A DNA stretch of 64,000 nt, taken from Patescibacteria group bacterium. GTDB taxonomy: Bacteria > Patescibacteriota > WWE3 > UBA101185 > UBA10185. The notes under the pieces are model-generated. The model worked only from the letters and a program-made list of their open reading frames with translations. It had not been told where the DNA came from and searched no databases. Below are positions 28,260 through 63,999 of this stretch, piece after piece. Position 1 is the first letter of the stretch. The number at the start of each line of letters is the position of its first letter. Made by a program: the position numbers and the translations under genes. The stretch is taken from contig JAFGOI010000004.1 in the NCBI GenBank assembly GCA_016926555.1, positions 64,776-128,775 on the forward strand. The letters are read 5' to 3'.

Positions 28260-28260
28260 T

Positions 28261-29116: not shown

Positions 29117-29120
29117 ATAT

Positions 29121-29971: not shown

Positions 29972-29972
29972 T

Positions 29973-30158: not shown

Positions 30159-30160
30159 TT

Positions 30161-30559: not shown

Positions 30560-30561
30560 TT

Positions 30562-31110: not shown

Positions 31111-31112
31111 TT

Positions 31113-37663: not shown

Positions 37664-37712
37664 TTAATTTTAGTTTAAACAGATAGTAAGTATTACTCAA
37701 AAGTTTTATTAG

Positions 37713-38960: not shown

Positions 38961-38993
38961 ATTTATAAACGTTACTAATATAATGTAAAATGA

Positions 38994-47237: not shown

Positions 47238-48160
47238 TCATTAAGATTTTAGTTAGCATTTTATTATTTGGATTTCTTTTTTCTAAGATAGATGTTAATA
47301 GCGTTGTTCAAAATTTTAGCTTAATAGATTTCACTTATGTGCCGGTGATTATTCTTTTGCTTGTACTTAATTATGTTTTAAGCTCAGTTCGGTGGAAGGC
47401 TCTTCTTATTTTTGATAACACAGATGATGTGAGTGTCAGCTATTTGACGACGTTGTACTTTGTTGGGTCTTTCTTTAATAATTTTATGCCGACGAGTATA
47501 GGAGGAGATGTCTATAAGTTCGTTAAGTTGGGTAAGAAGATCGGCAGTATCGCCCATGGATTTTCTGCGACATTTATGGAAAGATTCACAGGTGTTATAA
47601 TTTTATTTCTAATTACCTTGCTGAGTTTTCCTTTAGTTTTGTCTGATTTTGTGGACTTACCGGTTGTAGGGTCAGTATTAGGCGGGTCAAAAGTTAAGTC
47701 TGTCCTGTTGTCTATATTTATCTTTATATTGTTTATCTTGGGGTTGAGAATAGGTTTATGGGTGTTGGAAAAAGCGTCAGAAAGATTCCCGAAATTAAAG
47801 AAAATATATTCATCAGTAAGTGAATACGAAAACAGACAGGATATAATCAAGACTGCTTTACTTACGTCCGTATTAGTACAGCTTATGTCTATATTTACGC
47901 AGTATTTTATATTTTCTGCACTGGGTGTTAGAATTCCGATATTTTACACGTTCACGGTTTTTCCCGTTATAGCCCTGATAAGTTTCCTTCCGATTTCTCT
48001 TAACAGTATTGGTGTGCAGGATGCTTTATACGTAAATTTATTCGGTGTGGTTGGGATATCTCCTGAGATATCTTTAAGTGCATCTATACTCTACCATTTA
48101 TTTAGATTAGGGGTTAGTTTAATTGGAGGGCTGCTATATGCGTTGGGTAAAGATTCTTAG
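47216..48160 (+). CDS. UPF0104 / lysyl-PG-synthase-TM-like 'flippase-like' membrane protein
   Basis: 'LSSVRWKALL...YFVGSFFNNFMPTSIGGDVYKFVKLGKK' resembles the LPG_synthase_TM family, which is often paired with GT2 polyprenyl-P glycosyltransferases. Confidence 0.5.
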   Translation: MQKYKSLIIKILVSILLFGFLFSKIDVNSVVQNFSLIDFTYVPVIILLLVLNYVLSSVRWKALLIFDNTDDVSVSYLTTLYFVGSFFNNFMPTSIGGDVYKFVKLGKKIGSIAHGFSATFMERFTGVIILFLITLLSFPLVLSDFVDLPVVGSVLGGSKVKSVLLSIFIFILFILGLRIGLWVLEKASERFPKLKKIYSSVSEYENRQDIIKTALLTSVLVQLMSIFTQYFIFSALGVRIPIFYTFTVFPVIALISFLPISLNSIGVQDALYVNLFGVVGISPEISLSASILYHLFRLGVSLIGGLLYALGKDS

Positions 48161-49703: not shown

Positions 49704-51210
49704 GCCTCTATTTATGATTTTTATTCTCGCGCTGGCTCTTCGGTGGATTGGCAGCACACATGGATTCCCTTTTATCTTTCATCCCGATGAACCCACTATT
49801 GTGAGGGAAGCTCTGAACCTGAGATTTACTAGAAATCCGGGCCACTTTGACTGGCCGCATTTGTATATGTATCTGAACTACTTTTTGTTTATGTTCTTTG
49901 CAAAGCTGCGGGATCTGGCAGCTGTACAGGGTTTGAAGCCTTATCTAAGTGCGAATATTCCGATACTGTGGAACGATAACTTGGTATTTTATCTGCTTGC
50001 TAGACTTCTTTCGGGATTTTTTGGCGCGTTAACCGTAATCCCGGTTTATTACACCGGTAAAGTTTTATTTGATAAGAAAACAGCTATAATCTCAGCTTTT
50101 ATTTTCTCTGTTCTACCTTTTCACGTGTGGCATTCACACTATTCAATGGGAGATGTTCCAATGGTGTTTTTTATTGCTTTGAATATGTATTTTTCGGCTA
50201 AAATATTCAAAGAAAACGAGGCAAAAAATTATTTGCTGGCAGGGCTTTCCATTGGATTAGCGTCTTCTGTTAAATATAATGCTGTTTTATTGTGCTTAAC
50301 TGTGCCGCTTGCGCATATTTTTAGGATTCTCAATGATCGAAAAGAAAAGTTTTTTAATTTTGATACACTTATGAATCTAGTATTTTCCGGATTATGTGCC
50401 ATCGCAGGTTTTGTTGCTGGGACGCCTTACGCTGTGATGGATTACAAGACCTTTCTTATAAGTGATAGCCCAAAGGGTGCTCTTTGGCAGTTTGTGAATG
50501 TTGGTTCAGTGGATTCATCACAGCGTTTTACGAAATTTTTTACTGAAATGGTTCATAGGGTTTCAGATGATGTGGGTTATGTGGTTCTTGCCGCGTTTTT
50601 CATTGTTTTAGCAGTATTATTGTATAAATTGGCTGTGAGGAAGTTTTCGAAGAAAGATTATACTTTATGGTACTTAGTTATTCCCCCGTTTATTTCGCTT
50701 GTGTATGTTTCAGGATTCGACAGTACCAGATCGCACTACTATATGATAGCCTACCCGTTTCTGGCCGTTGTGTACGCTTATATTGTTTGTTATTTTTCTT
50801 CCTTAGTGAAGAAAAGTTATATGATTGAGTTTTTTTCGGTTGTTCTTTTGATTTTTCCGTTGTTTTATTTTTCCGTGATAAAAACGTATATATTTGCAAG
50901 GGAGGATACAAGAAATGTTTTATTTTCTTGGGCTAATCAACATGTGGATTTGAATACCCCGATAATTTCAGGAAATGATGAATATATTTATATGGTTTTG
51001 TCTTCGAAATATAAAAATATTTATAAAGGGTATTCTAGTTATAGTATTTCTCCCTTTGGATTGGGATATTTAGTTGTGGCTGTGAGTGATGAAAGCCCAA
51101 AACAGGCTTTTGAGAGGTTTACATATCTACCCAAGCTTAATCTTGTTTATTCTATAAATAATACGTATAGGCGGGGACCGTTTATTAATATTTATGAGTA
51201 TAGAAAATGA
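49684..51210 (+). CDS. GT-C (GT39/ArnT-like) lipid-carrier-dependent glycosyltransferase
   Basis: 'FHPDEPTIVREALNLRFTRNPGHFDWPHLYMYLNY' and 'YYTGKVLFDKKTAIISAFIFSVLPFHVWHSHY'; ~12 TM. Confidence 0.6.
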   Translation: MTKKLTEPLFMIFILALALRWIGSTHGFPFIFHPDEPTIVREALNLRFTRNPGHFDWPHLYMYLNYFLFMFFAKLRDLAAVQGLKPYLSANIPILWNDNLVFYLLARLLSGFFGALTVIPVYYTGKVLFDKKTAIISAFIFSVLPFHVWHSHYSMGDVPMVFFIALNMYFSAKIFKENEAKNYLLAGLSIGLASSVKYNAVLLCLTVPLAHIFRILNDRKEKFFNFDTLMNLVFSGLCAIAGFVAGTPYAVMDYKTFLISDSPKGALWQFVNVGSVDSSQRFTKFFTEMVHRVSDDVGYVVLAAFFIVLAVLLYKLAVRKFSKKDYTLWYLVIPPFISLVYVSGFDSTRSHYYMIAYPFLAVVYAYIVCYFSSLVKKSYMIEFFSVVLLIFPLFYFSVIKTYIFAREDTRNVLFSWANQHVDLNTPIISGNDEYIYMVLSSKYKNIYKGYSSYSISPFGLGYLVVAVSDESPKQAFERFTYLPKLNLVYSINNTYRRGPFINIYEYRK

Positions 51211-52838
51211 AACTGATTTTACGCTATAAATATGAAATATGTGTGTTTCTGCTTTTTGTTATCAGTAGGCTGCCCTCTTTAGGAAATGACTGTTTTAATA
51301 CGGATGTGTGGAAATGGAAAACGAGGAGTTATGATTTCGGTACAGGTGTATTTACACTAGATTTTGCAAAAACCAGTCAAAAGTATCATCCGGGAGTTAC
51401 TTTAATGTGGCTGGGGACTTTTGGTGTCAAAGTATTTAACCTCTATTATGATCTAGTATATGGCTCTGAAACTATTTCATTGTCTCCTACGCAAGATTAT
51501 TTAGTGAGGATTTTTGGTCTACACTTTGTTCAAAAATTATTTGTTGTCGTTGTGATAGGAGTTACACTGGTTTTTCTATTTAAAGCTTTGGAGAAAATTA
51601 TTGATAGGAAATACGCTGCTATTACTATATTTTTAATTGCGTTTGAGCCTTTTTTCTTAGCTTTAAGCAGAGTATTTCATCTTGAAGGTCTTCTTTCTGT
51701 TTTTATGGTCACTTCTGTGGTGTGGTTCTATATTTACCTGACTGGAAAAAGCGAAAAGAAGGCATTGCTTATTTCAGGAGTATTTGGAGGTTTATCGTTT
51801 CTAACAAAGACTTCTGCGGTGTACCTTGTTCCTTACGTGTTTCTAGTGTCCTTTATTTGGCTTAGTAAAATCAAGGATAATAAAAATGGAAGATTTGTTC
51901 CTGAATATGTAAAAACGGTTTTCTCGTGGATATTGATATCCCTGTCTGTGGTTGTGATATTGTGGCCCGCGTTGTGGGTGGATTTTTCAAATGTTGTGTC
52001 TAATCTATACAGGGGAGTTTCTGAAATTGGTATTGAACAAGAACATTCACAGATATATTTTGGCAAGCGCGTAGAGAATCCGGGTTTAACCTACTATTTG
52101 GTGGTATTACTACTAAGATCTTCTCCTTATTTATTAGTTGGATGTTTCAGTATGTATTTTTTAATTAAAAATGGCCGATTTGAGGATAAGAAAGATTTCG
52201 TATTTTATCTTTTTATATTTTCACTTTTTTATTTGATGCAGCATACGATTCCATCAAAAAAATTGGATAGATATATACTACCGGCAATTGTGGGTATGGT
52301 TCCCATTGCGTCGTTCTTCTTTTATGATCTTGTACAAAATAAAAGCATATCTAAAAATATTAAAGTGGCTGTTTTGCTATTTCCTTTGATTACAGCGGTC
52401 TATATACATCCGGACTACTTTTCCTACTATAATCCGTTTTTCGGAGGTATAAGAACGGGGATTAAAGTAATTGAACCTAAATGGATGATCGGACAAAGTG
52501 AAATTACAAAGTATTTTGAAGAATTAATTAAAGAGCGAGGAATTACAGGAGATAATGAGTGCCCATCTTTCGAATGTGTTATTGACAGTAACAAAACCAA
52601 AGATGTTCTTTCAGTAGGATTTCCTGAGAAATATTACACACAGGTACATCCATTTATTAGGAAAATTGGCGGTTGGGCAGTTATAAAGGATTTGACGCCC
52701 TTTGCAAAGCATACCAATTTTTTCGTTTATCCCGTGTGGGAAGACGATTCTTCTTTGGAGGACAGATTTAAGCTAAACTATATTGGTACCATTAAGGTAA
52801 AAGGAGTGGATGTATACAATGTTTACGAAAGTAATTAA
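51207..52838 (+). CDS. GT-C-like polytopic membrane glycosyltransferase (paralog B)
   Basis: 'WKWKTRSYDF...SQKYHPGVTLMW' and 'FEPFFLALSRVFH'; C-terminal soluble ~170 aa. Confidence 0.5.
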   Translation: MKLILRYKYEICVFLLFVISRLPSLGNDCFNTDVWKWKTRSYDFGTGVFTLDFAKTSQKYHPGVTLMWLGTFGVKVFNLYYDLVYGSETISLSPTQDYLVRIFGLHFVQKLFVVVVIGVTLVFLFKALEKIIDRKYAAITIFLIAFEPFFLALSRVFHLEGLLSVFMVTSVVWFYIYLTGKSEKKALLISGVFGGLSFLTKTSAVYLVPYVFLVSFIWLSKIKDNKNGRFVPEYVKTVFSWILISLSVVVILWPALWVDFSNVVSNLYRGVSEIGIEQEHSQIYFGKRVENPGLTYYLVVLLLRSSPYLLVGCFSMYFLIKNGRFEDKKDFVFYLFIFSLFYLMQHTIPSKKLDRYILPAIVGMVPIASFFFYDLVQNKSISKNIKVAVLLFPLITAVYIHPDYFSYYNPFFGGIRTGIKVIEPKWMIGQSEITKYFEELIKERGITGDNECPSFECVIDSNKTKDVLSVGFPEKYYTQVHPFIRKIGGWAVIKDLTPFAKHTNFFVYPVWEDDSSLEDRFKLNYIGTIKVKGVDVYNVYESN

Positions 52839-54075
52839 GAATCCCGAATTACAGGGAACAATAATCATTACAACCGGAAGTATAATTGGAAGCTTTTTTG
52901 CTTATCTTCTTCAATTTTTCTTGGGTCGAATGCTGTCTGTCGAAAATTATGGATCTTTTAGTGCTTTAATTTCTGTTTCTACAATAGTTGGCGTGTTTGC
53001 GGGTGTGTTTGTTATTGCATTAGTTAAAATAGTGTCTGAGCTGGTTGCGAAGGAAGATTTTGAGAGAGTGACAGCGTTATTTTGGAAGGTAACCCTCTGG
53101 GGACTTTTGTACGGGCTCGTGGCGTTTTTCTTGGTTTATATACTAAAGAATTATATCTCGAGTACACTAAAGATTTCTGATGTTACAGCTATAGTATTTT
53201 TCGGGTGGTTTCTGGGAATGAATTTATTTCCTCCTATATCGCGATCTTACCTTCAAGCCCTTTTAAGATATAAAGCATTGGCTTTCTTTCTAGTTTATAG
53301 CGGGTTTTTAAGGTTTGTTTTTCCGGTTGTTTTTGTTTATTTTGGCTATGCATTGTCCGGTGTTTTTTTTGGAATGGGGATAGGGTTGGCACTTTCGTTT
53401 GTTTTCTCGCTGCTTTTATTGCGTAAAAACTTTAGAAAACACGAGATAATTGATCTGTCCGAGCAGTATGAGAAATTTCTTATGCTGGGACTGCCTATTA
53501 CGATTCTATTTCTTGGTTTGATGATTCTTAGCAATATGGATATGATTCTCGTGAAAAGATTTTTTGATCCAGACCTAGCGGGATATTATGCCGGAACAGT
53601 AACACTTGGAAAAATACTTCTCTTTGGGGCGGGTTCGGTCAACTTGATTATGTTTCCGCAAATTTCAGCGGTATATACAAAAGGAGAAAATTATATCGAA
53701 AAATTCAAAAAGTTGCTATTCATGCAAATAGGTGTGGTAATTGCCGGGGTTGTCCCCTATATAGCATTTCCGAAATTTCTCACGACGGCATTCTTCGGGA
53801 AGAGTTTTCTGGGTTCAGTCGAATATTTACCTCTGTTCTCTATTTTTGTTGGATTATATGTATTAGTAAATTTTATGGTGTTGTTTTTTCTCGCGATAGA
53901 TAAAAAAAACGTTTTTTGGTTTCTTGTACCAGGTGTAACACTCCAAACTCTATTGATTTATTTTCTGCATGCGGATTTGTATCAGGTTATATATATAAAC
54001 ATAGGGGTTTCCTTAGCTACTTGTTTGGCACTATTTATTTACTATAGAAAAACTGTATCTCAAGCTCTATTTTAG
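52810..54075 (+). CDS. MOP-superfamily (Wzx-like) flippase, second copy
   Basis: 12-14 TM helices; 'IIITTGSIIGSFFAYLLQFFLGRMLSVENYGSFSALISV'. Confidence 0.6.
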   Translation: MYTMFTKVIKNPELQGTIIITTGSIIGSFFAYLLQFFLGRMLSVENYGSFSALISVSTIVGVFAGVFVIALVKIVSELVAKEDFERVTALFWKVTLWGLLYGLVAFFLVYILKNYISSTLKISDVTAIVFFGWFLGMNLFPPISRSYLQALLRYKALAFFLVYSGFLRFVFPVVFVYFGYALSGVFFGMGIGLALSFVFSLLLLRKNFRKHEIIDLSEQYEKFLMLGLPITILFLGLMILSNMDMILVKRFFDPDLAGYYAGTVTLGKILLFGAGSVNLIMFPQISAVYTKGENYIEKFKKLLFMQIGVVIAGVVPYIAFPKFLTTAFFGKSFLGSVEYLPLFSIFVGLYVLVNFMVLFFLAIDKKNVFWFLVPGVTLQTLLIYFLHADLYQVIYINIGVSLATCLALFIYYRKTVSQALF

Positions 54076-54092: not shown

Positions 54093-54905
54093 ATGTTAGT
54101 TTCAATAATTATTCCGGTATACAAAAAGGAAGAAACTGTAGTTAAAGATATTTTGAATATTTGGAAAACAGTTAAACAGACCAGATGGGATTGTGAGTTG
54201 ATAGTTGTTATTGATGGTTTTGTAGATAAAAGTTTTGAGAGGGCGAAGACGATAAAAAAGAAGAATATTAAAGTTTTCGGATATCCGACAAATAAAGGAA
54301 AAGGATATGCTGTAAAGTATGGTATGGCGCGTGCTAGAGGGGATTTGGTTGCTTTTATAGATTCTGGTATGGAGATAAATCCAAATAGTATTTCAATGGT
54401 TCTTGAACATATGGAATGGTATGATGCCGATGTAATAGTTGGCAGTAAGAGGCACCCTGCCTCTAAGACCAATTTAACGGCATTGAGGAAATTATATAGC
54501 TGGGGTTATTATCAACTTGTTAAGTATTTGTTTGGTTTGAGAGTAAAAGATACACAGGCTGGTTTAAAAGTTTTTAGAAGAAAAGTGTTAGAAAAGGTTC
54601 TTCCTCGGCTTTTAGTGAAGGAGTACGCATTTGATGTGGAACTTCTTGCCGTGACAAATCATCTCGGCTTTACGAGAATTTATGAGGCTCCTATTGAGAT
54701 AACATTGGATTTTGACAATTCTAGGTTTTCGAAAAATTGGTTTCCATTTATGGATAAACATATTCGGAAAATGATGGTGGATACACTTGCCGTCTTTTAT
54801 AGGCTTTATCTTCTTCGATACTATGACGATACAAGCAAGAGAAAATGGACATATGATAATGAGCTAAAAATGAGGATTAATACTGGAGAAGTAACTTATG
54901 ATTAA
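54093..54905 (+). CDS. GT2 glycosyltransferase
   Basis: 'LVSIIIPVYKKEETV...ELIVVIDGFVDKS...VAFIDSGMEINP'. Confidence 0.7.
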   Translation: MLVSIIIPVYKKEETVVKDILNIWKTVKQTRWDCELIVVIDGFVDKSFERAKTIKKKNIKVFGYPTNKGKGYAVKYGMARARGDLVAFIDSGMEINPNSISMVLEHMEWYDADVIVGSKRHPASKTNLTALRKLYSWGYYQLVKYLFGLRVKDTQAGLKVFRRKVLEKVLPRLLVKEYAFDVELLAVTNHLGFTRIYEAPIEITLDFDNSRFSKNWFPFMDKHIRKMMVDTLAVFYRLYLLRYYDDTSKRKWTYDNELKMRINTGEVTYD

Positions 54906-55911
54906 GTTTAGTATCATCATTCCTTGTAGATCAATTACGGATTTTTTGAAAGAGAGTATTCCTTACCTCAAAAAATTAAATTATAAACAGTACGAGATTC
55001 TCATTGTACTTGATAATGATGATGCATATGATTTCAGGGATAACAGGTTTAAGGTGCTGGTTTCGGGACCGGTTGGTCCCGCGGAGAAAAGAAATCTCGC
55101 GGTTTCTAAAGCTACAGGTGATATTTTAGCTTTTTTGGATGATGATGCGTTTCCGACTGAAAATTGGTTGGACAAAGCCGCAGAGTATTTTAATGACCCT
55201 TCTGTATACGCGTTAGGAGGTCCTGCGATGACTCCGGGTAACGCCGGTTTCCTTGAATTAGTTTCTGGTTTAATCTTGGAGTCATGTATATCCAGCGGCA
55301 ATACTGTTTATAGGCATCTTCCAAAAAAAGCAAGAAAGATCTCGGATTATCCAACCGTGAATTTGTTTGTCAGAAGGAAGATATTTATCGATGTAAAAGG
55401 ATTTAACACAGATTTTTGGCCCGGAGAGGACACAAAACTATGTTTGGATTTAGTTAAGAAAATGGGTGGGCCTTTTGTTTATGCACCGAATGTGTTGGTT
55501 TATCATCACAGGAGAGATGTGTTTATACCGCATTTGAAGCAGGTATCCCGTTACGGGAAACATCGCGGACAGTTTGCAAAAATATACCCCGAAACATCAA
55601 GGTTGCCATTTTATTTTGTACCTTCCATGTTTGTAGTGTTTTTAGTTTTGGGCGGGATATTGTCAGTGCTATTCAAACAGTATTTTTGGGGATACTTGGG
55701 GGTCATTTCACTGTATGTATGTATTACACTATTAGAAAGTATAAAAGCTTATACCAAGAGTAAGAAAATTTTAGTTGTGCCGTATTTCGTACTTGGAGTT
55801 TTTCTGACGCATCTTGTTTATGGTATAAACTTTATTATTGGTTATTTAGTAAGACCGGAATTAAAATTAAAGAGATATAATGAGAAAACCGGAAATTATA
55901 TGGAAGGATGA
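54898..55911 (+). CDS. GT2 glycosyltransferase with C-terminal TM anchor
   Basis: 'FSIIIPCRSITDFL...ILIVLDNDDAYD...LAFLDDDAFPTENWL' (DxD) plus 2-3 C-terminal TM. Confidence 0.7.
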   Translation: MIKFSIIIPCRSITDFLKESIPYLKKLNYKQYEILIVLDNDDAYDFRDNRFKVLVSGPVGPAEKRNLAVSKATGDILAFLDDDAFPTENWLDKAAEYFNDPSVYALGGPAMTPGNAGFLELVSGLILESCISSGNTVYRHLPKKARKISDYPTVNLFVRRKIFIDVKGFNTDFWPGEDTKLCLDLVKKMGGPFVYAPNVLVYHHRRDVFIPHLKQVSRYGKHRGQFAKIYPETSRLPFYFVPSMFVVFLVLGGILSVLFKQYFWGYLGVISLYVCITLLESIKAYTKSKKILVVPYFVLGVFLTHLVYGINFIIGYLVRPELKLKRYNEKTGNYMEG

Positions 55912-56165
55912 ATATGTCCGAGGAACAAAAAGTCTATAAAAATGCCTCTTCAAAAGTTGTGATTAAGGTTGTAAATGATGCATGTGTTAGCGCTGCTACA
56001 TGTGTAGTTTTTGCGCCCAACACGTTTGACTTGGATGAAAACGGTATCGTATATGCCAAAGAAGGTACATGGGACGAAGCTGAGGAGATAATTAAAGCCG
56101 CCAAGTCGTGCCCTACCACTGCAATAATTGTGGAAGATTTGGATGGAAACAGATTGTATCCTTAA
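55908..56165 (+). CDS. Small single-cluster ferredoxin ([3Fe-4S]/[4Fe-4S] type)
   Basis: 85 aa; 'CVSAATC' (C-x2-A-x2-C) ...'SCP', the mono-cluster Fd pattern; directly upstream of the radical SAM gene. Confidence 0.6.
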   Translation: MNMSEEQKVYKNASSKVVIKVVNDACVSAATCVVFAPNTFDLDENGIVYAKEGTWDEAEEIIKAAKSCPTTAIIVEDLDGNRLYP

Positions 56166-56204: not shown

Positions 56205-57809
56205 ATGTCCCAAAAGAAGTATAAAATCGTAATAGGATATCCACCGATTGCTCAAGAAAAAGGCACACCTCTTCTGTCTCAGAACAGACAGTTTCAGTAT
56301 TTTAATGCTCCCTGTTATATATATCCCATGGTTCCCGCGTATGCCGCAAGTTTAGCGCAGGAGAGAGGTTATGATGTTGTTTGGATGGATGGGATTGCCG
56401 AGAAGATGTCTTATAGCGAATGGGCAAGCAAGTTTATAAACGAAAAGCCCGATATTCTAATGATAGAGACAAAGGCTCCTGTAGTAAGACAGCACTGGAA
56501 AATAGTTGATGAACTGAAAAATGAACTCCCTGAGTTGGTTATTGTTCTGGTTGGCGATCATGTAACATGTTTTCCTGAGGAGTCGCTTAATTCCTGTAGT
56601 GCCGACTTCATAATTCTGGGGGGAGACTACGATTTTGTACTGTCTGATTTGGCGGATTCTCTTTCAAGCGGTACAACCTTGCCAGGAGGCATATGGGGTA
56701 GAAGTAGTAATAAAAAATTAGAACTTCCGAAAGAAACAGAAAACAAGGGCAAATATTTCGTTACGGGGTCGTCTCAATTAAAACACAAGCTGGACGATCT
56801 TCCTTTTATAGATAGGGATCTTACCAAGTGGAAACTATATGCATATGAGAATGGAAACTACAAGTATAAACCGGCAACTTATATGTACTCCGGGAGAGAC
56901 TGCTGGTGGAATAGGTGCACGTTTTGTATATGGGATCATTCCCTGTATCCACGAGGAAGTTACAGAAGATTTTCGCCTGAAAGACTGTTTGCAGAGGTAA
57001 AACATGTTGTTGATAATTATGGTGTAAGAGAAATTTTTGATGATGCGGGAACTCTATTCGTTGGCCCTCCCCTAAAGAAATTTTGCCAGTTATTAATAGA
57101 CTCAGGTTATAACAAAAAGGTTGTTTATAGCTGTAATATGAGATTAAATGCGCTAAACCAGGAATACTACGATTTGATGGGTAAGGCCAACTTTAGATTT
57201 ATTTTATATGGTATGGAGTCAGCAAATCAGGAAACACTTGATCGGATAGATAAGGGGATGAAAGTTGAAGATATCGAAAAGGGAGTGATAATGGCCAAGA
57301 AAGCTGGCCTAGAACCACATTTAACTGTCATGCTTGGGTATCCGTGGGAAACTGAGGAGATGGTAAAAAATACTATAAATTTGGCGAGAGATTTGTTTAA
57401 AAGAGGTTATGTCGATACGATGCAAGCCACTATAACAATTCCATATCCAGGGACGCCTCTATATAACGAGTGTGTAAAAAATGGCTGGTTGCGCGTGGAC
57501 CCAAAAGATTATGAAGCATTTGATATGCGGGGGCCTGTGATGAAAACACCTTTTCCCGTAGAGAGAATTTATGACTTTACACAGGAATTGTATTCTAGTT
57601 TCTTTACTCCGCAGTATATTATCCGAAAAGTTTTAGCCGTGAGGTCGCCCGATGATGTTAAGTTTCTGTTTATGGCGGCAAGAAGATTGATAGGACATTT
57701 ACTGGATTTTGATAAAGAGCAGGAGGGATCCAGCTGGTTAAATCCTAGTTTCTGGTTTCGGGCTGTAAAAAGCATGTTTAAGCATGTGTTTTCGAAAGAA
57801 AGCAAATAG
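56205..57809 (+). CDS. B12-binding-domain radical SAM enzyme (class B-like)
   Basis: N-terminal Rossmann-like cobalamin-binding region 'KIVIGYPPIAQEKGTPLLSQNRQFQYFNAPCYIYPMVPAYAASLAQERGYDVVWMD...' followed by a Cys triad 'RDCWWNRCTFCIW' (C-x4-C-x2-C) and TIM-barrel-like 'ILYGMESANQETLDRIDKG'. Confidence 0.65.
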   Translation: MSQKKYKIVIGYPPIAQEKGTPLLSQNRQFQYFNAPCYIYPMVPAYAASLAQERGYDVVWMDGIAEKMSYSEWASKFINEKPDILMIETKAPVVRQHWKIVDELKNELPELVIVLVGDHVTCFPEESLNSCSADFIILGGDYDFVLSDLADSLSSGTTLPGGIWGRSSNKKLELPKETENKGKYFVTGSSQLKHKLDDLPFIDRDLTKWKLYAYENGNYKYKPATYMYSGRDCWWNRCTFCIWDHSLYPRGSYRRFSPERLFAEVKHVVDNYGVREIFDDAGTLFVGPPLKKFCQLLIDSGYNKKVVYSCNMRLNALNQEYYDLMGKANFRFILYGMESANQETLDRIDKGMKVEDIEKGVIMAKKAGLEPHLTVMLGYPWETEEMVKNTINLARDLFKRGYVDTMQATITIPYPGTPLYNECVKNGWLRVDPKDYEAFDMRGPVMKTPFPVERIYDFTQELYSSFFTPQYIIRKVLAVRSPDDVKFLFMAARRLIGHLLDFDKEQEGSSWLNPSFWFRAVKSMFKHVFSKESK

Positions 57810-57820: not shown

Positions 57821-58561
57821 ATGAAAATTCTTGATATTTTGCTAGACACATTTACTGCTCTAAAAGAAAAAGGATTAAAACATGTAGTTAAGGTTATTAC
57901 TGACGTTGCTGGAGGAAATTTGCATAACTGTTTTTGGTATACGTATGGCAAAGTCTTTAATAAAACGGTTGTCCATGTCATAGGTGATAGTCACGTTAGA
58001 GTTTTTAAGGGCCAAAAACGCTTCATTATTCATCATTTGGGACCTGCTACAGCGTATAATCTTTCAAGTAAACATAGTACAACGGACTCAAATGAGAAGT
58101 TTTGGAATGTTGTTGATACACTTGTTGAAAAGAAAAAAGACAAAATACTCCTTGTTTTTGGCGAGATAGATAGCCGGATACATATTTATAAAGCCTATAA
58201 AAAGAAGGGAAGTTCGATTGACGACGTTATTTACGCTACTATATCCAGATATGACGAAGTTCTTAGTCAGCTAAACGAAAGAGGATATACTTTCTACGTT
58301 CATGGAATTCCACCTGGCTCAAAGCAAGAAAACATATATAACGTTTCCCACTATCCCACACCTGAGATGCGAGCGAAGATTAACAAAAGATTTCATGAGG
58401 TATTAGAAGAGCATTGTAAGAAGAGAGGATACAAGTATATCGATGTATATATGCCGTATGTTAACGAAGAAGGTTTTATTAAGAGAGAATATGAGTTAGA
58501 TGAAGTTCATCTGAACAATAGAATAATTCCTGAGGTGAAGAGAGCCATAAATTTTTACTAG
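57821..58561 (+). CDS. SGNH/GDSL-family hydrolase or acyl-/O-acetyltransferase-like protein
   Basis: Block I 'VVHVIGDSHVRVF' (GDSx) and block V 'YELDEVHLNNR' (DxxH). Confidence 0.5.
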   Translation: MKILDILLDTFTALKEKGLKHVVKVITDVAGGNLHNCFWYTYGKVFNKTVVHVIGDSHVRVFKGQKRFIIHHLGPATAYNLSSKHSTTDSNEKFWNVVDTLVEKKKDKILLVFGEIDSRIHIYKAYKKKGSSIDDVIYATISRYDEVLSQLNERGYTFYVHGIPPGSKQENIYNVSHYPTPEMRAKINKRFHEVLEEHCKKRGYKYIDVYMPYVNEEGFIKREYELDEVHLNNRIIPEVKRAINFY

Positions 58562-58569
58562 CACTAACT

Positions 58570-59613
58570 ATGAAAGTAAACTGGCAAAAAATCTCAATAG
58601 TAATGCCGACACTAAATGCCGAGAAGGTATTAGGTAGCGCGCTAGAGTCCATAAAAGTGCAAGATTACCCCAAGGACAAAATAGAGATTATTGTTGCAGA
58701 TGGAAGTTCCTCGGATGGAACTTTAGACTTGGCGAAAAAATATGGGGCGAGAGTAGTTGGGAACAAGTTAAGAACGGGGGAGGCCGGTAAGGCGGCTGCG
58801 TTAAGAGAAGTAAATGGAGAATTTGTTATATTTATAGATTCGGACAATATTCTGCCTACAAAGAATTGGATAAAGCAGATGATTAAACCGTTGATAGACA
58901 ATCCAAATGCTGTTGGCAGTGAACCCTGGAAATATACGTGGAGGAAAGAAGATGGCTTTATTACGAGATATTGCGCGTTAATCGGCATGAACGATCCCCT
59001 GGTACATTTCCTTGGTAACTATGATCGAGTGAATCTCCTGACGGGGAAGTGGACGGAAGTGCCCCATGAAGAGGAAGATATGGGAGATTACCTTCTTGTT
59101 AAATTGGATGAAAGGGGAATTCCCACTATTGGTGCGAATGGAACTGTATTCAGGAAAGCATTTTTGGATAAAAATTGGTCTGGCGATTATTTTTTCGATA
59201 TAGATATCATCCACAAAAAGATACGTTTGGACGGCAGCGTATTGTTTATTAAGGTAAAAAACGGAATTATCCACACTTTTTGCGAGAATAATGTGTCCAA
59301 GTTCATAAGGAAGCAAAAAAGGAGAATAAAAGATTATCTCTACCATCAGTATGTGGCTAAAGACAGAGAATATGATTGGAGCAGCATGGATATATCGGGC
59401 AAAAATAACAAAGGTATACTCCTTTTTATATTCTCGTGTTTGACAGTAATTCCATTGATAATACAGTCTTTAAAGGGATATTTTAGAAAACCGGATATGG
59501 CGTGGTTCTTTCATCCTATAGCTTGCGAAATTACTTTATGGGAATATGGTTGGGCTAAAATTACGGGTATATTTAAAAAAGCGGAAATTAGTAGAAGTAA
59601 CTGGAGGCAGTGA
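58570..59613 (+). CDS. GT2 glycosyltransferase with C-terminal TM segment
   Basis: 'ISIVMPTLNAEKVL...IEIIVADGSSSDGT...VIFIDSDNILP'. Confidence 0.7.
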   Translation: MKVNWQKISIVMPTLNAEKVLGSALESIKVQDYPKDKIEIIVADGSSSDGTLDLAKKYGARVVGNKLRTGEAGKAAALREVNGEFVIFIDSDNILPTKNWIKQMIKPLIDNPNAVGSEPWKYTWRKEDGFITRYCALIGMNDPLVHFLGNYDRVNLLTGKWTEVPHEEEDMGDYLLVKLDERGIPTIGANGTVFRKAFLDKNWSGDYFFDIDIIHKKIRLDGSVLFIKVKNGIIHTFCENNVSKFIRKQKRRIKDYLYHQYVAKDREYDWSSMDISGKNNKGILLFIFSCLTVIPLIIQSLKGYFRKPDMAWFFHPIACEITLWEYGWAKITGIFKKAEISRSNWRQ

Positions 59614-60497
59614 TTGTGAAAAGTAAGAAAGATAAAATAGATTTTATAGGTATAGGTTCAGCGAAATCCGGTTCATCGTGGTTGGCGACTTGTTTAATAG
59701 AACATCCCCAAGTTAACCTCCCAAAGGAGAAATCACTTTTCTTTTTTAACGCAGATTATGGAAATGAATATATCAAGGATAACTGGTCGTATTGGTCAAA
59801 AGGTATAGATTGGTACCTAAGTAAATTCCCCCCCGTGGAAAAAGGAAAAATAAGAGGTGAATTTGGGGTAAGTTATTTGCACGATCCTGAAGCGCCACAA
59901 AGGATTAAGGATAATTTCCCCGATACAAAAATCTTAGTCACTTTGAGGAACCCCTGTGACATGCTCTATTCACTATATTGGTATAACGTCAACACTGTTG
60001 AGGCGAAAGTTCCGGAGACGTTTGAAGAGGCAGTTAAGACCGGATGGTGTATCGACAGAGGGAATTATTATAAGTATTTAAGAAGGTTTTTTGATTTGTT
60101 TCCGCGGAAGAATATTCATGTTGTGATATTTGATGATATTAGAAATGAGCCTGAAAGAGTTGCGTTCGAGCTGTACAAATTTCTGGAAGTTGATACAAGT
60201 TTTAAACCATCTATATTAGATAAGAAAATTTATTCGGCCATAGGACATCGGTTTTGGATGTTTAAACAGCTCGGATATTATATGTTTGCTGTGTTAAGAA
60301 TTCTAAAGCTTGAGAAAGTGAGAAGGTTTCTTATTGATAACCCAATATTTTACGCAGTCTATGCGAAGTTAAATGTTGTTCCTAAAAAGTATCCCCCAAT
60401 GGAAGATGGCAGTAGAAATAAACTGAGGAAAGTATATAGGAAAGATATAAAAAAGCTAGAAAAGCTGGTAAAACATGATTTAAGTGCCTGGTTATAG
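59610..60497 (+). CDS. Sulfotransferase-family protein (PAPS-dependent)
   Basis: 5'-PSB-like 'IDFIGIGSAKSGSSWL' and 3'-PB-like 'ILVTLRNPCDMLYSLYWY'; GTG start. Confidence 0.65.
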   Translation: MIVKSKKDKIDFIGIGSAKSGSSWLATCLIEHPQVNLPKEKSLFFFNADYGNEYIKDNWSYWSKGIDWYLSKFPPVEKGKIRGEFGVSYLHDPEAPQRIKDNFPDTKILVTLRNPCDMLYSLYWYNVNTVEAKVPETFEEAVKTGWCIDRGNYYKYLRRFFDLFPRKNIHVVIFDDIRNEPERVAFELYKFLEVDTSFKPSILDKKIYSAIGHRFWMFKQLGYYMFAVLRILKLEKVRRFLIDNPIFYAVYAKLNVVPKKYPPMEDGSRNKLRKVYRKDIKKLEKLVKHDLSAWL

Positions 60498-60580: not shown

Positions 60581-61612
60581 ATGAAATATCTTATTACCGG
60601 AGGTTGCGGGTTTATAGGTGTTAACTTCGCTGAGAAAATACTAAGGAGGGGAGACGAAGTGATATTACTGGATAATTTATCCAGGAGAGGGACATCCACA
60701 AATCTTGAATACCTTAAAAAGATATACAATAAAGTGAAATTTGTTCATGTGGATATAAGAATAGATAATGGTTCTTTGCAGAAAGCTGTTAATCAGGTTG
60801 ATGTTGTGTACCATTTAGCTTCTCAGGTTGCAGTAACCACATCGGTGAAAGATCCATTTGAAGATTTTTACATTAATGCGTTGGGTACTTTTAATGTTTT
60901 GGAAGCGGTAAGAAAGTCGGCAAATAAGCCGATTCTAATTTACGCGTCAACAAACAAAGTGTACGGAGGGATGGAAGAAATATCAGTAATTGAAGGTGCA
61001 GATAGGTATACCTATAAAGATTTTCCTATTGGGATTCCAGAATCAATGTGTCTTGATTTTCATTCTCCTTATGGTTGTTCAAAAGGTTGTGGAGACCAGT
61101 ACGTGAGAGATTACGCGAGAATCTACGATTTACGCACAGTGGTTATGAGACAATCATGTATATACGGTCCCCGTCAGTTTGGGATTGAGGATCAAGGATG
61201 GGTTGCCTGGTTTGTGATAGCAAAGCTTCTAGGTTCCCCAATAAGTATTTATGGCAACGGGAAACAGGTGCGTGATGTTCTTTACGTTGACGATTTGTTT
61301 AGCGCATGGGATTTTGCTACTAAAAATCCTAATATAACTAGGGGTAAAGTATATAATGTTGGAGGCGGTCCTCGAAATACGATTTCTTTGTTGGAATTTC
61401 TTAACTTACTAGGTGAGCTAACAGGATCTTTTGTGAGTTATACTTTTTCTGACTGGCGCCCCGGAGATCAACCCGTTTATATTTCGGATATAAGTAAGAT
61501 ACGAGAAGAGTTGGGATGGGAGCCATTAACTGATGTAAAGTCGGGTGTAAGAAAACTAATTGATTGGGTGAGAGAGAACGAAGATTTGGTTAGAGCACAA
61601 TTAAGTTTATAA
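60581..61612 (+). CDS. NAD-dependent sugar epimerase/dehydratase (extended SDR; CDP-paratose-2-epimerase-like)
   Basis: 'MKYLITGGCGFIGVNFAEKIL' (GxxGxxG), 'YASTNKVYGG' and catalytic 'YGCSKGCGDQY' (YxxxK). Confidence 0.85.
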   Translation: MKYLITGGCGFIGVNFAEKILRRGDEVILLDNLSRRGTSTNLEYLKKIYNKVKFVHVDIRIDNGSLQKAVNQVDVVYHLASQVAVTTSVKDPFEDFYINALGTFNVLEAVRKSANKPILIYASTNKVYGGMEEISVIEGADRYTYKDFPIGIPESMCLDFHSPYGCSKGCGDQYVRDYARIYDLRTVVMRQSCIYGPRQFGIEDQGWVAWFVIAKLLGSPISIYGNGKQVRDVLYVDDLFSAWDFATKNPNITRGKVYNVGGGPRNTISLLEFLNLLGELTGSFVSYTFSDWRPGDQPVYISDISKIREELGWEPLTDVKSGVRKLIDWVRENEDLVRAQLSL

Positions 61613-61619: not shown

Positions 61620-62771
61620 ATGAAAATTGGAGTACTAATAGATAGACTGAACGTTGGTGGTGTGGAGAAGACTGCAATCCAGGAAGTGAAAGCCGCACAA
61701 AAGTTGGGTGTTAATACAGAGCTGTTAGTTCTGAGTAGAAAATCAGTTGTGGAAGGCGCGCATGAGGATTTGTTAGGGGATCTTCCAATTCAATTTCTGG
61801 ATGATAGATTACCCGGTTTCCTGAAGTTTACATTCGGAATGCCTGGTTTTGCTTTTTTCTCTCTTTTCCACATTACGTATCCCATCATTTTGCCGTTTTT
61901 TATAAAGTCTAGGGAATGGGATCATATAATAAGCCATGGTTCTTATACAACATTATCTGCTCTTGGCATAAAATTTCTGAGAAAAATCCCATTTTCTATT
62001 TATTTTTGGGATCCAATAGATTATATAGTTAAGAGAGTTTATATTGGAAAGTTCCCAAAGCAGTTAATAAGTATATACACATTTTTTGGGAGATTCTTCG
62101 ACAGATTATTTGTTAAAGAAGCGGAGTATGTGTTTGTCGCTGGGGATACACATAATTCTTATCTGAGTAAATATGTGGGTTTAGATAAAATTACGGTTGT
62201 AAATCCAGGTACGCCAGTTGGGAAACCTGAAAAAAAGGAAAAACATGTGCTTATGGTAACTACATGGAAAGAGGGAAAACACCCCGAATATGTATTTGAA
62301 TTAGCAAGGAAGTTGCCGGGGGTAAAATTTAAACTGGTTGGCGGATGGGTAGATTCTGGAATGAGAAGATCTTTTGAGAAAAAAAGGGATAAGTTAGGTT
62401 TGGATGACTATATCGAGTTGTGCGGTGAGGCAAATGAGGGACAGCTAGCCTATTATTATCCGAGGGCGGCAGTTCATTTAACTACTAATTTAGAAAAAGG
62501 CTTCGGTATGCCTGTTTTAGAAGCTGCAGCATGCGGAACGGTATCAATTGTTCCAAAAGGCAGCGGGGTATGTTCAGTGTTTGAGCATGGCGTGGACGCT
62601 TTTTATTCTGAAGAGAGAAATACTGAAGAGATTGTATCTTATATTAAGTCTATGATTGATGATATGGATAAAGCAAAGGAGATGGGGCTTAAGGCTTATA
62701 ATCGTGTTAAAGAAAGTTATACATGGGAAGCTCACACGAAAAAGATTTTAAAGAAAATTGGCGCTATGTAG
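61620..62771 (+). CDS. GT4 glycosyltransferase
   Basis: 'LTTNLEKGFGMPVLEAAACGTVSIVPKGSGVCSVFEHGVDAF'. Confidence 0.7.
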   Translation: MKIGVLIDRLNVGGVEKTAIQEVKAAQKLGVNTELLVLSRKSVVEGAHEDLLGDLPIQFLDDRLPGFLKFTFGMPGFAFFSLFHITYPIILPFFIKSREWDHIISHGSYTTLSALGIKFLRKIPFSIYFWDPIDYIVKRVYIGKFPKQLISIYTFFGRFFDRLFVKEAEYVFVAGDTHNSYLSKYVGLDKITVVNPGTPVGKPEKKEKHVLMVTTWKEGKHPEYVFELARKLPGVKFKLVGGWVDSGMRRSFEKKRDKLGLDDYIELCGEANEGQLAYYYPRAAVHLTTNLEKGFGMPVLEAAACGTVSIVPKGSGVCSVFEHGVDAFYSEERNTEEIVSYIKSMIDDMDKAKEMGLKAYNRVKESYTWEAHTKKILKKIGAM

Positions 62772-63999
62772 AAAATCAATGTTTAAAGAACATGACAGAC
62801 ATAAATCCATTTTTAACATCACTCGCGCCTCATACATAAATGCAGGTTATACCTCGGATTATTTTAGAGAATGTTATGAGTACTACTGCGTGTTGTCTTT
62901 TAGTTCACACAATACGAATAAAGAGGATAAGACGAAATTTACGATCTATAAAAATGGGGAAGTTAAGGACGCTGTCGAATTAGTATCACTGCCGAAAAAT
63001 CCGCCCGTACTTTTGGTGCCTTTTTATCAGTTGTTTTTCTGCTTGAGCATAGTTTGGTCTTTTTTTATATTGAAGTTTAAATATAAGATCAAACCTGAAA
63101 TATGTGTTACATCTTTTTCTCTATGGTCCCTTACCTCTCACCTAATGAGAATATTGGGTTTTTGTAAACGGACAATTTTTTGGACCTGGGATTATTTTCC
63201 GAAAGTTAAAGAGGATCCATACTATATGCTTCTGCACATAATTGAGCCCTTCGATAAATTAGCATTAAATATTTGTGACTATGCTTGGTACGCGAGTCAG
63301 AGCAATTTTGATAAGCGGGTTGAAATTGGGCAGGTAAAAAATCCCGATGATCCGAAACACAAAGTTGTTCACTGGGGAACCGGCGGTAGTCTTATTGGAC
63401 CTGTTTCGTCAAACTATTTAGACACAGGTATTCTAAGGCTGGTCTATTTTGGGTCTATAAATCCGGAGAAGGGTCTGGATATTTTGTTTGAATCTCTTCC
63501 GAGATTGATAAAGTTAGTTAATGGGAAATTGGAAATACTTATAATAGGTGGAGACACGGAATATAAAAAGGAGTTGCAGAAAGAGATTAAAAAACAGGGA
63601 AATGACAAGTATGTGAAATTTTACGGATTTATGTCAACTGATGAGTTTGATAAAATCGCGGAAACTTGTGACCTGGGATTGGCTTTATTTGTTCCGGAGA
63701 TTGGGGGGCAACCCAACTTTTCATATTATGCTGACCCGTCAAAGCCAAGAGATTATTTGGCTAATGGTCTTCCCGTGCTGATTACCGCAGTGCCATTTAT
63801 TCATAAGGATATACAAGAATATAACGCGGGTATTGTGCTAGATAAATATTCAGCCGAGAGTTTAGTTTTGGCGGTATCTGCATATGTTAAAAATCCGTCA
63901 ATGTACAAAAAAGGGGCTTACAAACTTGCTCAAGTAGATAGATATGATGTTTATTACGGAAGTAAATTTGGATTGGTTTACAAAGACTTGCAAAATTAG
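62758..63999 (+). CDS. GT-B-fold (GT4-like) glycosyltransferase, divergent
   Basis: C-terminal Rossmann half 'LRLVYFGSINPEKGLDILFE...LEILIIGGDTEYKKEL...YLANGLPVLITAVPFIHKDIQEYNAGIV'; the N-terminal half is poorly conserved. Confidence 0.45.
   Translation: MALCRKSMFKEHDRHKSIFNITRASYINAGYTSDYFRECYEYYCVLSFSSHNTNKEDKTKFTIYKNGEVKDAVELVSLPKNPPVLLVPFYQLFFCLSIVWSFFILKFKYKIKPEICVTSFSLWSLTSHLMRILGFCKRTIFWTWDYFPKVKEDPYYMLLHIIEPFDKLALNICDYAWYASQSNFDKRVEIGQVKNPDDPKHKVVHWGTGGSLIGPVSSNYLDTGILRLVYFGSINPEKGLDILFESLPRLIKLVNGKLEILIIGGDTEYKKELQKEIKKQGNDKYVKFYGFMSTDEFDKIAETCDLGLALFVPEIGGQPNFSYYADPSKPRDYLANGLPVLITAVPFIHKDIQEYNAGIVLDKYSAESLVLAVSAYVKNPSMYKKGAYKLAQVDRYDVYYGSKFGLVYKDLQN

Follow-up and report, generated by a model that had tools for sequence, protein, structure and literature searches.

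A predicted carbohydrate sulfotransferase and a divergent SGNH-fold protein in a conserved glycan-assembly operon of a Patescibacteria bacterium

Results

A glycan-assembly cluster that includes a sulfotransferase gene

The stretch of DNA analysed here (64 kb, positions 64,776 to 128,775 of contig JAFGOI010000004.1; hereafter the window) belongs to a WWE3 member of the Patescibacteria, or Candidate Phyla Radiation (CPR), and has a G+C content of ~38%. From position 35775 to the end of the window, ~28 kb of a single strand (+) carries glycan-assembly genes, and among these lie the two genes with which this study is concerned, one encoding a predicted sulfotransferase of the kind that uses 3'-phosphoadenosine 5'-phosphosulfate (PAPS) and the other an SGNH-like protein. 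As judged by Pfam, the 28-kb cluster comprises six family 2 glycosyltransferases (GT2), five family 4 glycosyltransferases (GT4), four GT-C enzymes (PMT/PMT_2/STT3-like), a DUF2079 protein, two Wzx-type flippases and an LPG_synthase_TM flippase-like protein. An original prediction, made by inspecting the letters of the sequence, had proposed that a sulfotransferase and an SGNH hydrolase or acyltransferase flank a GT2 gene; all three open reading frames (ORFs) lie where it placed them, the motifs it quoted are present, and the gene between the two is a GT2 (PF00535, 78.5 bits). The genes of the downstream half of the cluster are as follows:

49684-51210 and 51207-52838, + strand: two GT-C (PMT/STT3-like) membrane glycosyltransferases (PF02366, PF13231, PF02516)
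52810-54075, + strand: Wzx-type flippase (PF01943; 12 transmembrane-like segments)
54093-54905, + strand: GT2a, similar to polyprenyl-phosphate sugar synthases (PF00535, 82.6 bits; nearest NCBIfam models PgfS/PpgS/ArnC-like, below cutoffs)
54898-55911, + strand: GT2b, with two C-terminal transmembrane segments (PF00535, 59 bits; nearest NCBIfam models MftF/EpsD-like, below cutoffs)
55908-56165, + strand: small 4Fe-4S ferredoxin (PF13370, 42.4 bits)
56205-57809, + strand: B12-binding radical SAM enzyme, HpnJ-like (PF04055, 68 bits; PF02310, 28 bits)
57821-58561, + strand: predicted SGNH-fold esterase-like protein, between the radical SAM gene and GT2c
58570-59613, + strand: GT2c, with a C-terminal membrane anchor (one transmembrane-like segment, residues 283-301; PF00535)
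59616-60497, + strand: predicted PAPS-type sulfotransferase (ORF opens at 59610; PF00685, PF13469)
60581-61612, + strand: short-chain dehydrogenase/reductase (SDR), NDP-sugar 4,6-dehydratase/epimerase (PF16363, 173.7 bits; TIGR01181, dTDP-glucose 4,6-dehydratase, 192.8 bits against a cutoff of 365)
61620-62771 and 62758-63999, + strand: two GT4 (PF00534, 75.2 and 59 bits)

The GT2a and GT2b genes overlap, the ferredoxin probably supplies the radical SAM enzyme with electrons, and the cluster may extend past the end of the window.

A sulfotransferase resembling those that act on heparan sulfate

ORF 59610-60497 carries the motifs GSAKSGSSWL (residues 16-25) and LRNPCDM (residues 112-118). Translation probably begins at 59616 and not at 59610, since a Shine-Dalgarno sequence (GGAGG, 59603-59607) stands only 2 nt from the GTG at 59610, yet 8 nt, a fitting distance, from the in-frame GTG at 59616. 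The latter start yields a protein of 293 aa, the same as a 100%-identical database entry (P0001; P-numbers denote database protein entries), and the stop codon of GT2c (TGA, 59611-59613) lies 2 nt upstream of it.

The family proposed from these motifs was confirmed by profile searches, in which the protein passed the gathering thresholds of both PF00685 (65.3 bits, cutoff 22) and PF13469 (44 bits, cutoff 27). Sequence matches in the PDB were 3rnl, over its full length (1.7e-24), the heparan sulfate (HS) sulfotransferase 3-OST-1 (4.9e-10) and the sulfotransferase domain of NDST (4.4e-9). In the alignments, K19 of the loop GSAKSGSS (residues 16-23) falls on the lysine of the 5'-phosphosulfate-binding (5'-PSB) loop of 3-OST-1 and of the N-sulfotransferase domain (NST), R113 and S121 (LRNPCDMLYS, the serine standing eight residues on) fall on the Arg and Ser of the 3'-phosphate-binding (3'-PB) motif of 3-OST-1, and E84 (rGEFgvsY) falls on the Glu of vEKtpaY in 3-OST-1 and of fEKsanY in NST, which we take to be the catalytic base of both enzymes, whereas cytosolic sulfotransferases use a His. 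These positions, whose conservation the original prediction had made the test of its proposal, are well kept across 117 full-length homologs: R113 and S121 occur in every one (117/117 each), position 19 is Lys in 87 and Arg in 30, and residue 84 is Glu in 114, Asp in 2 and Gln in 1; H32, P33 and Y89 are likewise invariant.

The structure of the protein, predicted by AlphaFold from an alignment of homologs (pLDDT 91.1, pTM 0.88), matched the expected fold. Foldseek paired the model with 3rnl, with NDST1 bound to PAPS, and with 3-OST-1, -3 and -5 bound to 3'-phosphoadenosine 5'-phosphate (PAP), at E-values of 8e-14 to 8e-10 and a probability of 1.00, whereas cytosolic sulfotransferases (SULTs), the CurM/OLS sulfotransferase domains and tyrosylprotein sulfotransferases (TPSTs) were reached only at ~1e-6 or weaker. 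Because NDST1 and the 3-OSTs rank above the SULTs, we place the enzyme in the carbohydrate-sulfotransferase branch, with the HS 3-O- and N-sulfotransferases. Neither a transmembrane-like segment nor a signal peptide was found in the protein. Judged by sequence and model together, ORF 59616-60497 encodes a predicted soluble sulfotransferase of the PAPS-dependent fold in which all donor-binding and catalytic positions are kept.

The comparison with the animal enzymes can be drawn more closely. HS 3-OST-1, -3 and -5 and the N-sulfotransferase domain of NDST1 have the same fold as the model (Foldseek E-values 1e-13 to 1e-10, TM-scores 0.61-0.78) and share with it the lysine of the 5'-PSB loop, the Arg and Ser of the 3'-PB motif and the Glu of the xEKxxxY strand; their acceptors are carbohydrates and their donor is PAPS. 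The window enzyme, however, is only 18-22% identical to them, is prokaryotic, soluble and cytoplasmic where they are type II membrane proteins of the Golgi lumen, and contains a segment of ~60 residues (about 197-258) without counterpart in the sequence alignments with the animal enzymes. Nothing points to a heparan-like polymer here. On sequence and model, then, the enzyme is predicted to work like the HS 3-O- and N-sulfotransferases while standing outside the animal family proper. Its closest solved relative, 3rnl, a structural-genomics entry from Alicyclobacillus acidocaldarius, is likewise bacterial, soluble and similar in size (24% identity; fold E-value 7.8e-14, TMt 0.79), but is uncharacterised and gives no clue to the substrate.

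The subfamily comprises 467 clusters (at 50% identity) at E<=1e-30, within a superfamily of 26,312 clusters at E<=1e-3. The view that sulfated glycoconjugates are uncommon in bacteria therefore needs dividing: sulfated bacterial glycans are indeed rare among characterised systems (PMC8205485), but the enzyme subfamily itself is not rare in metagenomes.

Stable partners of the sulfotransferase gene

The proteins of the cluster were compared with 85 genome loci and 80 metagenome loci (designated by L-numbers), the scan of the collection having been seeded by a 12-sequence alignment. In the closest relative for which gene context was available, L095, the sulfotransferase is 59% identical and the gene order reads GT-C, GT-C, Wzx, GT2a (64%), GT2b (54%), ferredoxin (76%, at the same position), B12-radical SAM (70%), GT2c (58%), sulfotransferase (59%) and GT4 (60%), the identities across the whole core ranging from 46 to 76%. 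Two genes of the window are missing from this series. The SGNH gene is absent from L095, where the match to the radical SAM enzyme and that to GT2c are separated by a gap of only 27 nt (8958-8985), and the SDR gene is absent as well, the GT4 following directly upon the sulfotransferase; a 60% homolog of the first GT4 (61620-62771) stands directly 3' of the sulfotransferase in both L095 and L096. Since they are missing from the nearest relative, we regard the SGNH and SDR (60581-61612) genes as lineage-specific insertions. The SGNH gene was also absent from L001, L007, L003 and all other sulfotransferase loci examined. A 160-aa ORF that occupies its position in L001 (9444-9926) was considered as a counterpart and rejected, being non-homologous and without a Pfam match.

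Beyond L095, the same core is present at 37-66% identity in L001, a locus from a WWE3 genome, and its five central enzymes (GT2a, GT2b, radical SAM, GT2c and sulfotransferase) recur in three further genomes of low G+C, with L007 and L003/L009 carrying all of these genes. L003/L009 and L007 share the five genes with the window at 35-50% identity, and L015 shares four in a shorter locus. These three are labelled Pseudomonadales or Gammaproteobacteria; given their G+C content of 32-36% and their synteny with the window, we consider the labels doubtful.

Gene by gene, GT2a and GT2b are syntenic in L095, L001, L007, L003 and L015, and the order GT-C, GT-C, Wzx recurs in L095, L001 and L011/L101. 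Homologs of the radical SAM enzyme are found in L095, in L001 (64%), in L007 (47%, directly adjoining the sulfotransferase) and in L003 (46%). GT2c homologs adjoin the sulfotransferase in L095 and L007 (46%), lie elsewhere in the cluster in L001 (66%) and L003 (35%), and in L015 (37%) stand beside the sulfotransferase on the opposite strand. The stable partners of the sulfotransferase are thus the three GT2s, the B12-radical SAM enzyme (with the ferredoxin in the closest relative), the Wzx flippase and the GT-C enzymes. The central proposal, of a sulfotransferase and an SGNH-type enzyme that tailor a glycan made by the neighbouring glycosyltransferases, is supported: both families or folds could be assigned, the binding residues of the sulfotransferase are kept in its homologs and its gene belongs to a conserved glycosyltransferase cluster. 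It needs qualifying in that the SGNH protein is no conserved partner and an acyltransferase role for it is less likely.

Where in the pathway might sulfation take place? The sulfotransferase, the radical SAM enzyme and the SGNH protein have no transmembrane segment, GT2b and GT2c are membrane-anchored, and PAPS is a cytoplasmic metabolite. Natural fusions also exist in which a sulfotransferase domain follows a Wzx flippase (P0417, a continuous ORF at L094 6001-8235, in a GT2-rich cluster) or a GT2 (P0473); in a third fusion (P0418) it follows an N-terminal region of ~670 aa without a Pfam match. The Wzx and GT2 fusions suggest that the glycan receives its sulfate while lipid-linked, on the cytoplasmic side of the membrane. 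Such an order of events has a precedent in Halobacterium, whose N-glycan is sulfated and methylated while still on its dolichol-phosphate carrier (PMC8674786).

These same genes could be read in another way, with a sulfated glycolipid head group as the product: sugars would be attached to a membrane lipid by the GT2s, an amino-sugar among them would be remodelled by the HpnJ-like enzyme, as in the synthesis of the hopanoid cyclitol-ether, and the sulfotransferase would add the sulfate. The radical SAM enzyme does have HpnJ (TIGR03471) as its best NCBIfam match, over the full length and at 168.7 bits, its nearest solved structure is AprD4 (6fd2, 2.8e-10), and both HpnJ and AprD4 remodel amino-sugars. 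Moreover, the LPG_synthase_TM protein of the cluster is HpnL-like, GT2c matches HpnB and HpnI weakly, and bacterial sulfotransferases often act on glycolipids, as in mycobacterial sulfolipids and Nod factors (PMC8205485). All of the Hpn matches, however, are far below the equivalog cutoffs (577.6 for HpnJ), and no genes for synthesis of hopanoids or other lipid backbones were seen in the window. The module, furthermore, always adjoins a Wzx flippase and GT-C transferases, and a Wzx-sulfotransferase fusion exists. We therefore consider a glycolipid product unlikely and retain a flipped, lipid-linked oligosaccharide as the likelier substrate of the sulfotransferase.

A divergent SGNH-fold protein, probably acquired by this lineage

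The motifs by which the SGNH protein was first recognised, GDSH and DEVH, are residues 55-58 and 227-230 of ORF 57821-58561. Its assignment to the SGNH hydrolases was borne out by the fold of its model and by the conservation of its catalytic triad, but not by Pfam, where PF13472 scored 22.3 bits against a cutoff of 32.9 and PF00657 gave no match; nor did any NCBIfam model match. The protein is identical to an NCBI entry, 'hypothetical protein JXA34_00985 [Patescibacteria group bacterium]', and belongs to a family of >150 proteins of which roughly half have precomputed PF13472 or PF00657 matches, several members being named SGNH/GDSL hydrolase or lysophospholipase L1-like esterase. In 120 homologs, the triad residues S57, D227 and H230 are kept in 120, 119 and 120, respectively.

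Block III of the family departs from the textbook pattern. It reads G114-E-I-D117-x-R119 (GEIDxR), invariant or nearly so, instead of GxND, with Ile at the position of the oxyanion Asn in 118/120 homologs. Between blocks I and III, where the oxyanion Gly of block II would be sought, the conserved stretch is T77-A78-x-N80-L81, and no Gly is invariant. The invariant N80, which follows strand 2, may, to judge from the alignment, substitute for the oxyanion Asn of block III.

The structural model (pLDDT 91.2) includes an N-terminal two-helix extension and gave 69 PDB matches at E<=1e-3 in Foldseek. Among the 50 listed, the named natural proteins were of SGNH/GDSL type, the top matches including sialate O-acetylesterase (6xpg/7pzg), platelet-activating factor acetylhydrolase (PAF-AH), GDSL lipases, acetyl-xylan esterases and PatB, at 10-18% identity; by sequence, a profile of the family finds 7pzg and 6njc at 5e-5. 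The Phocaeicola vulgatus sialate O-acetylesterase and the PAF-AH/GDSL enzymes share with the window protein the alpha/beta/alpha SGNH fold and a triad placed in blocks I and V. They differ from it in their low identity (10-18%), in having GxND where it has GEID, in its invariant N80 and N-terminal extension, and in being secreted or periplasmic, whereas the window protein, in which no transmembrane-like segment or signal peptide was found, is predicted to be cytoplasmic. Sequence and model thus describe ORF 57821-58561 as a divergent protein of predicted SGNH fold with an intact Ser-Asp-His triad.

In PatB, OatA and AlgX the SGNH domain serves as a transferase, PatB (8tlb) is itself among the fold matches (E 2e-4), and the altered oxyanion block GEID could disfavour water as acceptor; the protein might accordingly be an O-acyltransferase, putting an acyl group onto the glycan instead of taking one off. 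The known SGNH O-acetyltransferases, however, act outside the membrane with an AT3 or MBOAT partner, and the window protein lacks a signal peptide and transmembrane segment, no AT3 or MBOAT gene was found by Pfam among the ORFs of the glycan cluster, and its best sequence and fold matches are O-acetylesterases. With a soluble protein and no such partner in the cluster, we favour, at modest confidence, an esterase, and hold the acyltransferase to be improbable.

As to its origin, the gene has its closest homologs in other phyla (one, at 46% identity, in a Nanoarchaeota record) and is absent from the closest CPR relative, which suggests that it was acquired horizontally into the operon. An unnamed metagenome protein, also 46% identical, is encoded among genes for nonulosonic/Kdo-type sugars; the surroundings of a Chloroflexi homolog were uninformative. 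We also considered a logic like that of NDST, in which the SGNH protein would remove an N-acetyl group ahead of N-sulfation, and rejected it, the gene not being co-conserved with the sulfotransferase and its nearest relatives being O-acetylesterases.

CPR lineages with genes for PAPS synthesis

The original prediction saw no genes for PAPS synthesis in the window, and this was borne out by tblastn with CysC and CysD probes and by motif scans for Sat and adenosine 5'-phosphosulfate (APS) kinase. Outside the rpoBC and ribosomal-protein operon (12453-32367, which had no Pfam scan), all ORFs of at least 120 aa in the window were assigned to other families. The syntenic loci L001, L095, L007 and L003, too, yielded no PAPS genes in the 10 kb around the sulfotransferase.

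Related loci are more telling. The CysC and CysD probes matched only L027 and L070 among the 85 genome loci, and none of the 80 metagenome loci. Both are labelled Candidatus Saccharibacteria (31-38% G+C), and in L070 (1770-7241) Pfam identifies a GT4, CysD, a CysN-CysC fusion, a CysQ-like PAP phosphatase and two sulfotransferases; in L027 (1078-10915), similarly, cysD and cysN-cysC stand beside a sulfotransferase. The sulfotransferases of these two loci have the same DFIGIG N-terminus as the window enzyme, with which they align at 30-35% identity (E 2e-40 to 1e-55), and their neighbours lend indirect support to PAPS as the donor in this family. When the CysN-CysC protein of L070 was searched against 5.8 billion proteins, the best 120 matches lay at 51-71% identity and nearly all carried the names of CPR lineages (Andersenbacteria, Peregrinibacteria, Falkowbacteria, Magasanikbacteria, Paceibacteria and many 'Patescibacteria group' records), with a Spirochaetales record only near the bottom. 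Three of these CPR genes were viewed in their surroundings (L091, L092 and L093); each stands, with cysD, in a glycan cluster together with a sulfotransferase, glycosyltransferases and an exporter, and L091 and L092 also have a CysQ-like gene; the sulfotransferase of L093 is 31% identical to the window enzyme, those of L091 and L092 belonging to other subfamilies.

Going by these gene assignments, CPR lineages apparently make and recycle PAPS, and do so for glycan sulfation; the setting of the genes suggests that PAPS synthesis is kept in reduced genomes for this purpose. The original prediction had raised the possibility that PAPS comes from the host or partner; the cell would then be unable to make PAPS and would draw it, or APS, from outside. 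In favour of this stand the reduced metabolism of CPR genomes and the lack of PAPS genes in the window and in the neighbourhoods of the four syntenic sulfotransferases. Absence from 64 kb, however, says little for a genome of which one contig already spans 288 kb, we know of no bacterial PAPS importer, and a large CPR clade of CysN-CysC fusions exists, with members beside sulfotransferases in the glycan clusters L070, L027, L091, L092 and L093 and with CysQ-like genes in three of these. CysD, CysN-CysC and CysQ in CPR make host-derived PAPS unnecessary as a general explanation. For this organism, too, the same comparisons make self-made PAPS likelier than a host supply, which we regard as quite improbable.

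Other features of the window

The rest of the window was catalogued as follows:

286-3911, - strand, left window edge: ribosomal-protein and rpoA operon (S13-S11-S4-rpoA-L17-L13-S9)
right of this operon: serS (4548-5897), bacA, secA and lepB (Pfam)
12453-32367: rpoBC and the main ribosomal-protein operon, identified by position and length only
after the main ribosomal operon and before the glycan cluster: secY, adk and a CAP-domain protein
34548-35516, between adk and the glycan cluster: the CAP/SCP-domain protein
35775-49703, + strand: upstream half of the glycan cluster, with three GT2, three GT4, two GT-C-like (PMT_2) enzymes, DUF2079, a second Wzx-like flippase and an LPG_synthase_TM flippase-like protein (Pfam and NCBIfam)
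43603-45762, glycan cluster: DUF2079 membrane protein of 719 aa
47216-48160, glycan cluster: LPG_synthase_TM/HpnL-like flippase-like protein

Two Wzx-type flippases, together with DUF2079 and the LPG_synthase_TM protein, suggest genes for more than one glycan pathway. The S13-S11-S4-rpoA-L17-L13-S9 block and the rpoBC and S10-spc ribosomal genes at 12.4-33.6 kb are on opposite strands and stand apart from each other. No tRNA or Rfam element was found in the window. In the leader upstream of serS (4330-4530), 'ctaggtggcaccgtcgc' precedes a GC-rich stem and a run of T, an arrangement that resembles a T-box riboswitch with a terminator; a T-box there was rejected, there being no Rfam match at gathering thresholds or at E<=0.1. 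An origin of replication at ~4 kb (3912-4547), where GC skew and gene orientation flip, was also considered and rejected, as the gap holds no cluster of DnaA boxes. Across the window as a whole, DnaA-box-like 9-mers (<=1 mismatch) are enriched (39 against 20.7 +/- 4.6 expected; 0/100 shuffles reached 39), probably through a compositional effect, since most sit on the minus strand inside plus-strand genes.

Discussion

Our preferred reading, to which we assign a probability of roughly 0.6, is that the region is the tailoring end of a surface-glycan assembly operon conserved in CPR/Patescibacteria, in which a lipid-linked glycan is sulfated with PAPS made by the cell itself, and to which this lineage has added an SGNH esterase of its own. 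Sequence comparison and modelling together indicate that the organism probably puts sulfate on its surface sugars; beyond a carbohydrate sulfotransferase in a conserved glycan operon, the individual steps are those that we infer. On the cytoplasmic side of the membrane, the membrane-anchored GT2s would assemble an oligosaccharide with polyprenyl phosphate as the carrier, and the radical SAM enzyme, reduced by the ferredoxin, would alter a sugar carbon by C-methylation or rearrangement. The sulfotransferase would then pass sulfate from cytoplasmic PAPS to a sugar hydroxyl or free amine, with K19 stabilising the leaving 5'-phosphate and E84 serving as the base. The sulfated lipid-linked glycan would be flipped by Wzx and handed by the GT-C enzymes to a protein or a wall polymer at the cell surface. 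In this lineage alone, the acquired SGNH esterase would probably take off an O-acetyl or O-acyl group, its substrate being either the same intermediate or a sugar precursor, and the acquired NDP-sugar dehydratase would supply a further sugar variant. The PAPS would most likely come from the cell's own CysD and CysN-CysC, encoded elsewhere in the genome.

Two known systems bear comparison with such a pathway. In the synechan (xss) cluster of Synechocystis PCC 6803, as in the window, glycosyltransferases and a Wzx flippase are accompanied by sulfotransferases of the PF00685/PF13469 type, which act there in repeat-unit assembly (PMC8205485). The window differs from it in that Wzy, the polysaccharide co-polymerase (PCP) and the outer-membrane export protein (OPX) were not recognised, in having several GT-C enzymes, a B12-radical SAM enzyme with its ferredoxin and a predicted SGNH esterase instead, in belonging to a monoderm-like CPR bacterium, and in that equivalents of the XssQRS regulators were not seen. 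The authors of the synechan study stated that, to their knowledge, sulfotransferase genes had not been found in other bacterial clusters for extracellular polysaccharides (PMC8205485); later cases are described in papers on Pontiella and Actinoplanes. In Halobacterium salinarum, sulfation and methylation take place on a lipid-phosphate-linked oligosaccharide before its transfer to surface proteins (PMC8674786), and GT2-type enzymes of the window are similar to AglJ and AglG. The haloarchaeal system differs in being archaeal and in its dolichol carrier and AglB oligosaccharyltransferase, and as the study names no sulfotransferase (PMC8674786), homology with the window enzyme cannot be stated.

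Several observations weigh against the preferred reading. The SGNH-like protein lacks the Asn of block III, falls below the Pfam threshold and is not co-conserved with the sulfotransferase, and the assignment of its putative substrate rests on weak analogy. No cysD, cysN, cysC, sat or cysQ lies in the 64 kb of the window, and the CysC and CysD probes were E. coli sequences typed by hand, although Pfam confirmed their matches. Wzy, PCP and OPX had no Pfam match among the cluster ORFs (35775-63999), though they could lie past the window. Finally, ~50 members of the sulfotransferase family from Chthoniobacterales/Verrucomicrobia (among L013-L066) are orphans with essentially no glycosyltransferase nearby (one each in L049 and L050); in L023 (9995-10864), for example, the neighbours are an AI-2E transporter, DUF819 and bPH_2 proteins and a family-B DNA polymerase. 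Searched with profile hidden Markov models built from the GT2, GT4 and Wzx genes of the window, 22 of 80 reference-genome loci had a glycosyltransferase within 6 kb of the sulfotransferase, and these came from CPR, Bacteroidetes, some Desulfobacteraceae and a few others. In view of the ~50 orphan Verrucomicrobial loci, we rejected a glycan association across the whole family, which therefore holds for some branches; the acceptor may differ in the Chthoniobacterales/Verrucomicrobia branch. That the window enzyme itself acts on a non-glycan acceptor (a metabolite, lipid or protein tyrosine), or adds sulfate as a transient leaving group in the manner of CurM/OLS, its place in a glycan cluster being incidental, is very unlikely: besides the Verrucomicrobial orphans beside transporters, such a view has in its favour the CurM/OLS domains and TPSTs among the distant fold matches, but these match at least three orders of magnitude more weakly than do the carbohydrate sulfotransferases, the genes keep their order and their close spacing to GT2c, the domain occurs fused to GT2 and to Wzx, and the CPR, Bacteroidetes and Desulfobacteraceae members sit in glycosyltransferase clusters.

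The protein families involved are ordinary, and what makes the locus interesting is the organism and the conserved partnership with a B12-radical SAM enzyme, not a new kind of protein. Animals, algae, cyanobacteria and haloarchaea are well-known makers of sulfated glycans. In other bacteria they are considered rare (PMC8205485). Within the literature searched, no work tied sulfotransferases, PAPS synthesis or APS kinase to CPR/Patescibacteria, there being only incidental co-mentions; sulfated surface glycans in CPR, made with a conserved radical SAM partner and with dedicated PAPS synthesis in relatives, are a specific prediction without description in that literature.

A broader proposal, which we put forward tentatively and think possible but less probable than our reading of this one locus, is that CPR widely make sulfated surface glycans. 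The conserved operon (GT2a, GT2b, ferredoxin, B12-radical SAM, GT2c, sulfotransferase, Wzx, GT-C) would build a C-modified, sulfated, lipid-linked oligosaccharide, and CysD, CysN-CysC and CysQ would be kept only for glycan sulfation and not for sulfur assimilation. Host-attached as CPR cells are, and with genomes so small, their surface chemistry is central to their biology. The locus gives a testable prediction of a sulfated surface glycan, a defined and conserved set of genes for heterologous reconstitution, and a rationale for the retention of PAPS synthesis in some CPR genomes. If the proposal is true, a cobalamin radical SAM enzyme and a carbohydrate sulfotransferase, working as a pair, would tailor glycans by a chemistry without earlier description, and a polyanionic, glycosaminoglycan-like coat could aid these cells in attaching to their hosts or in evading phages.

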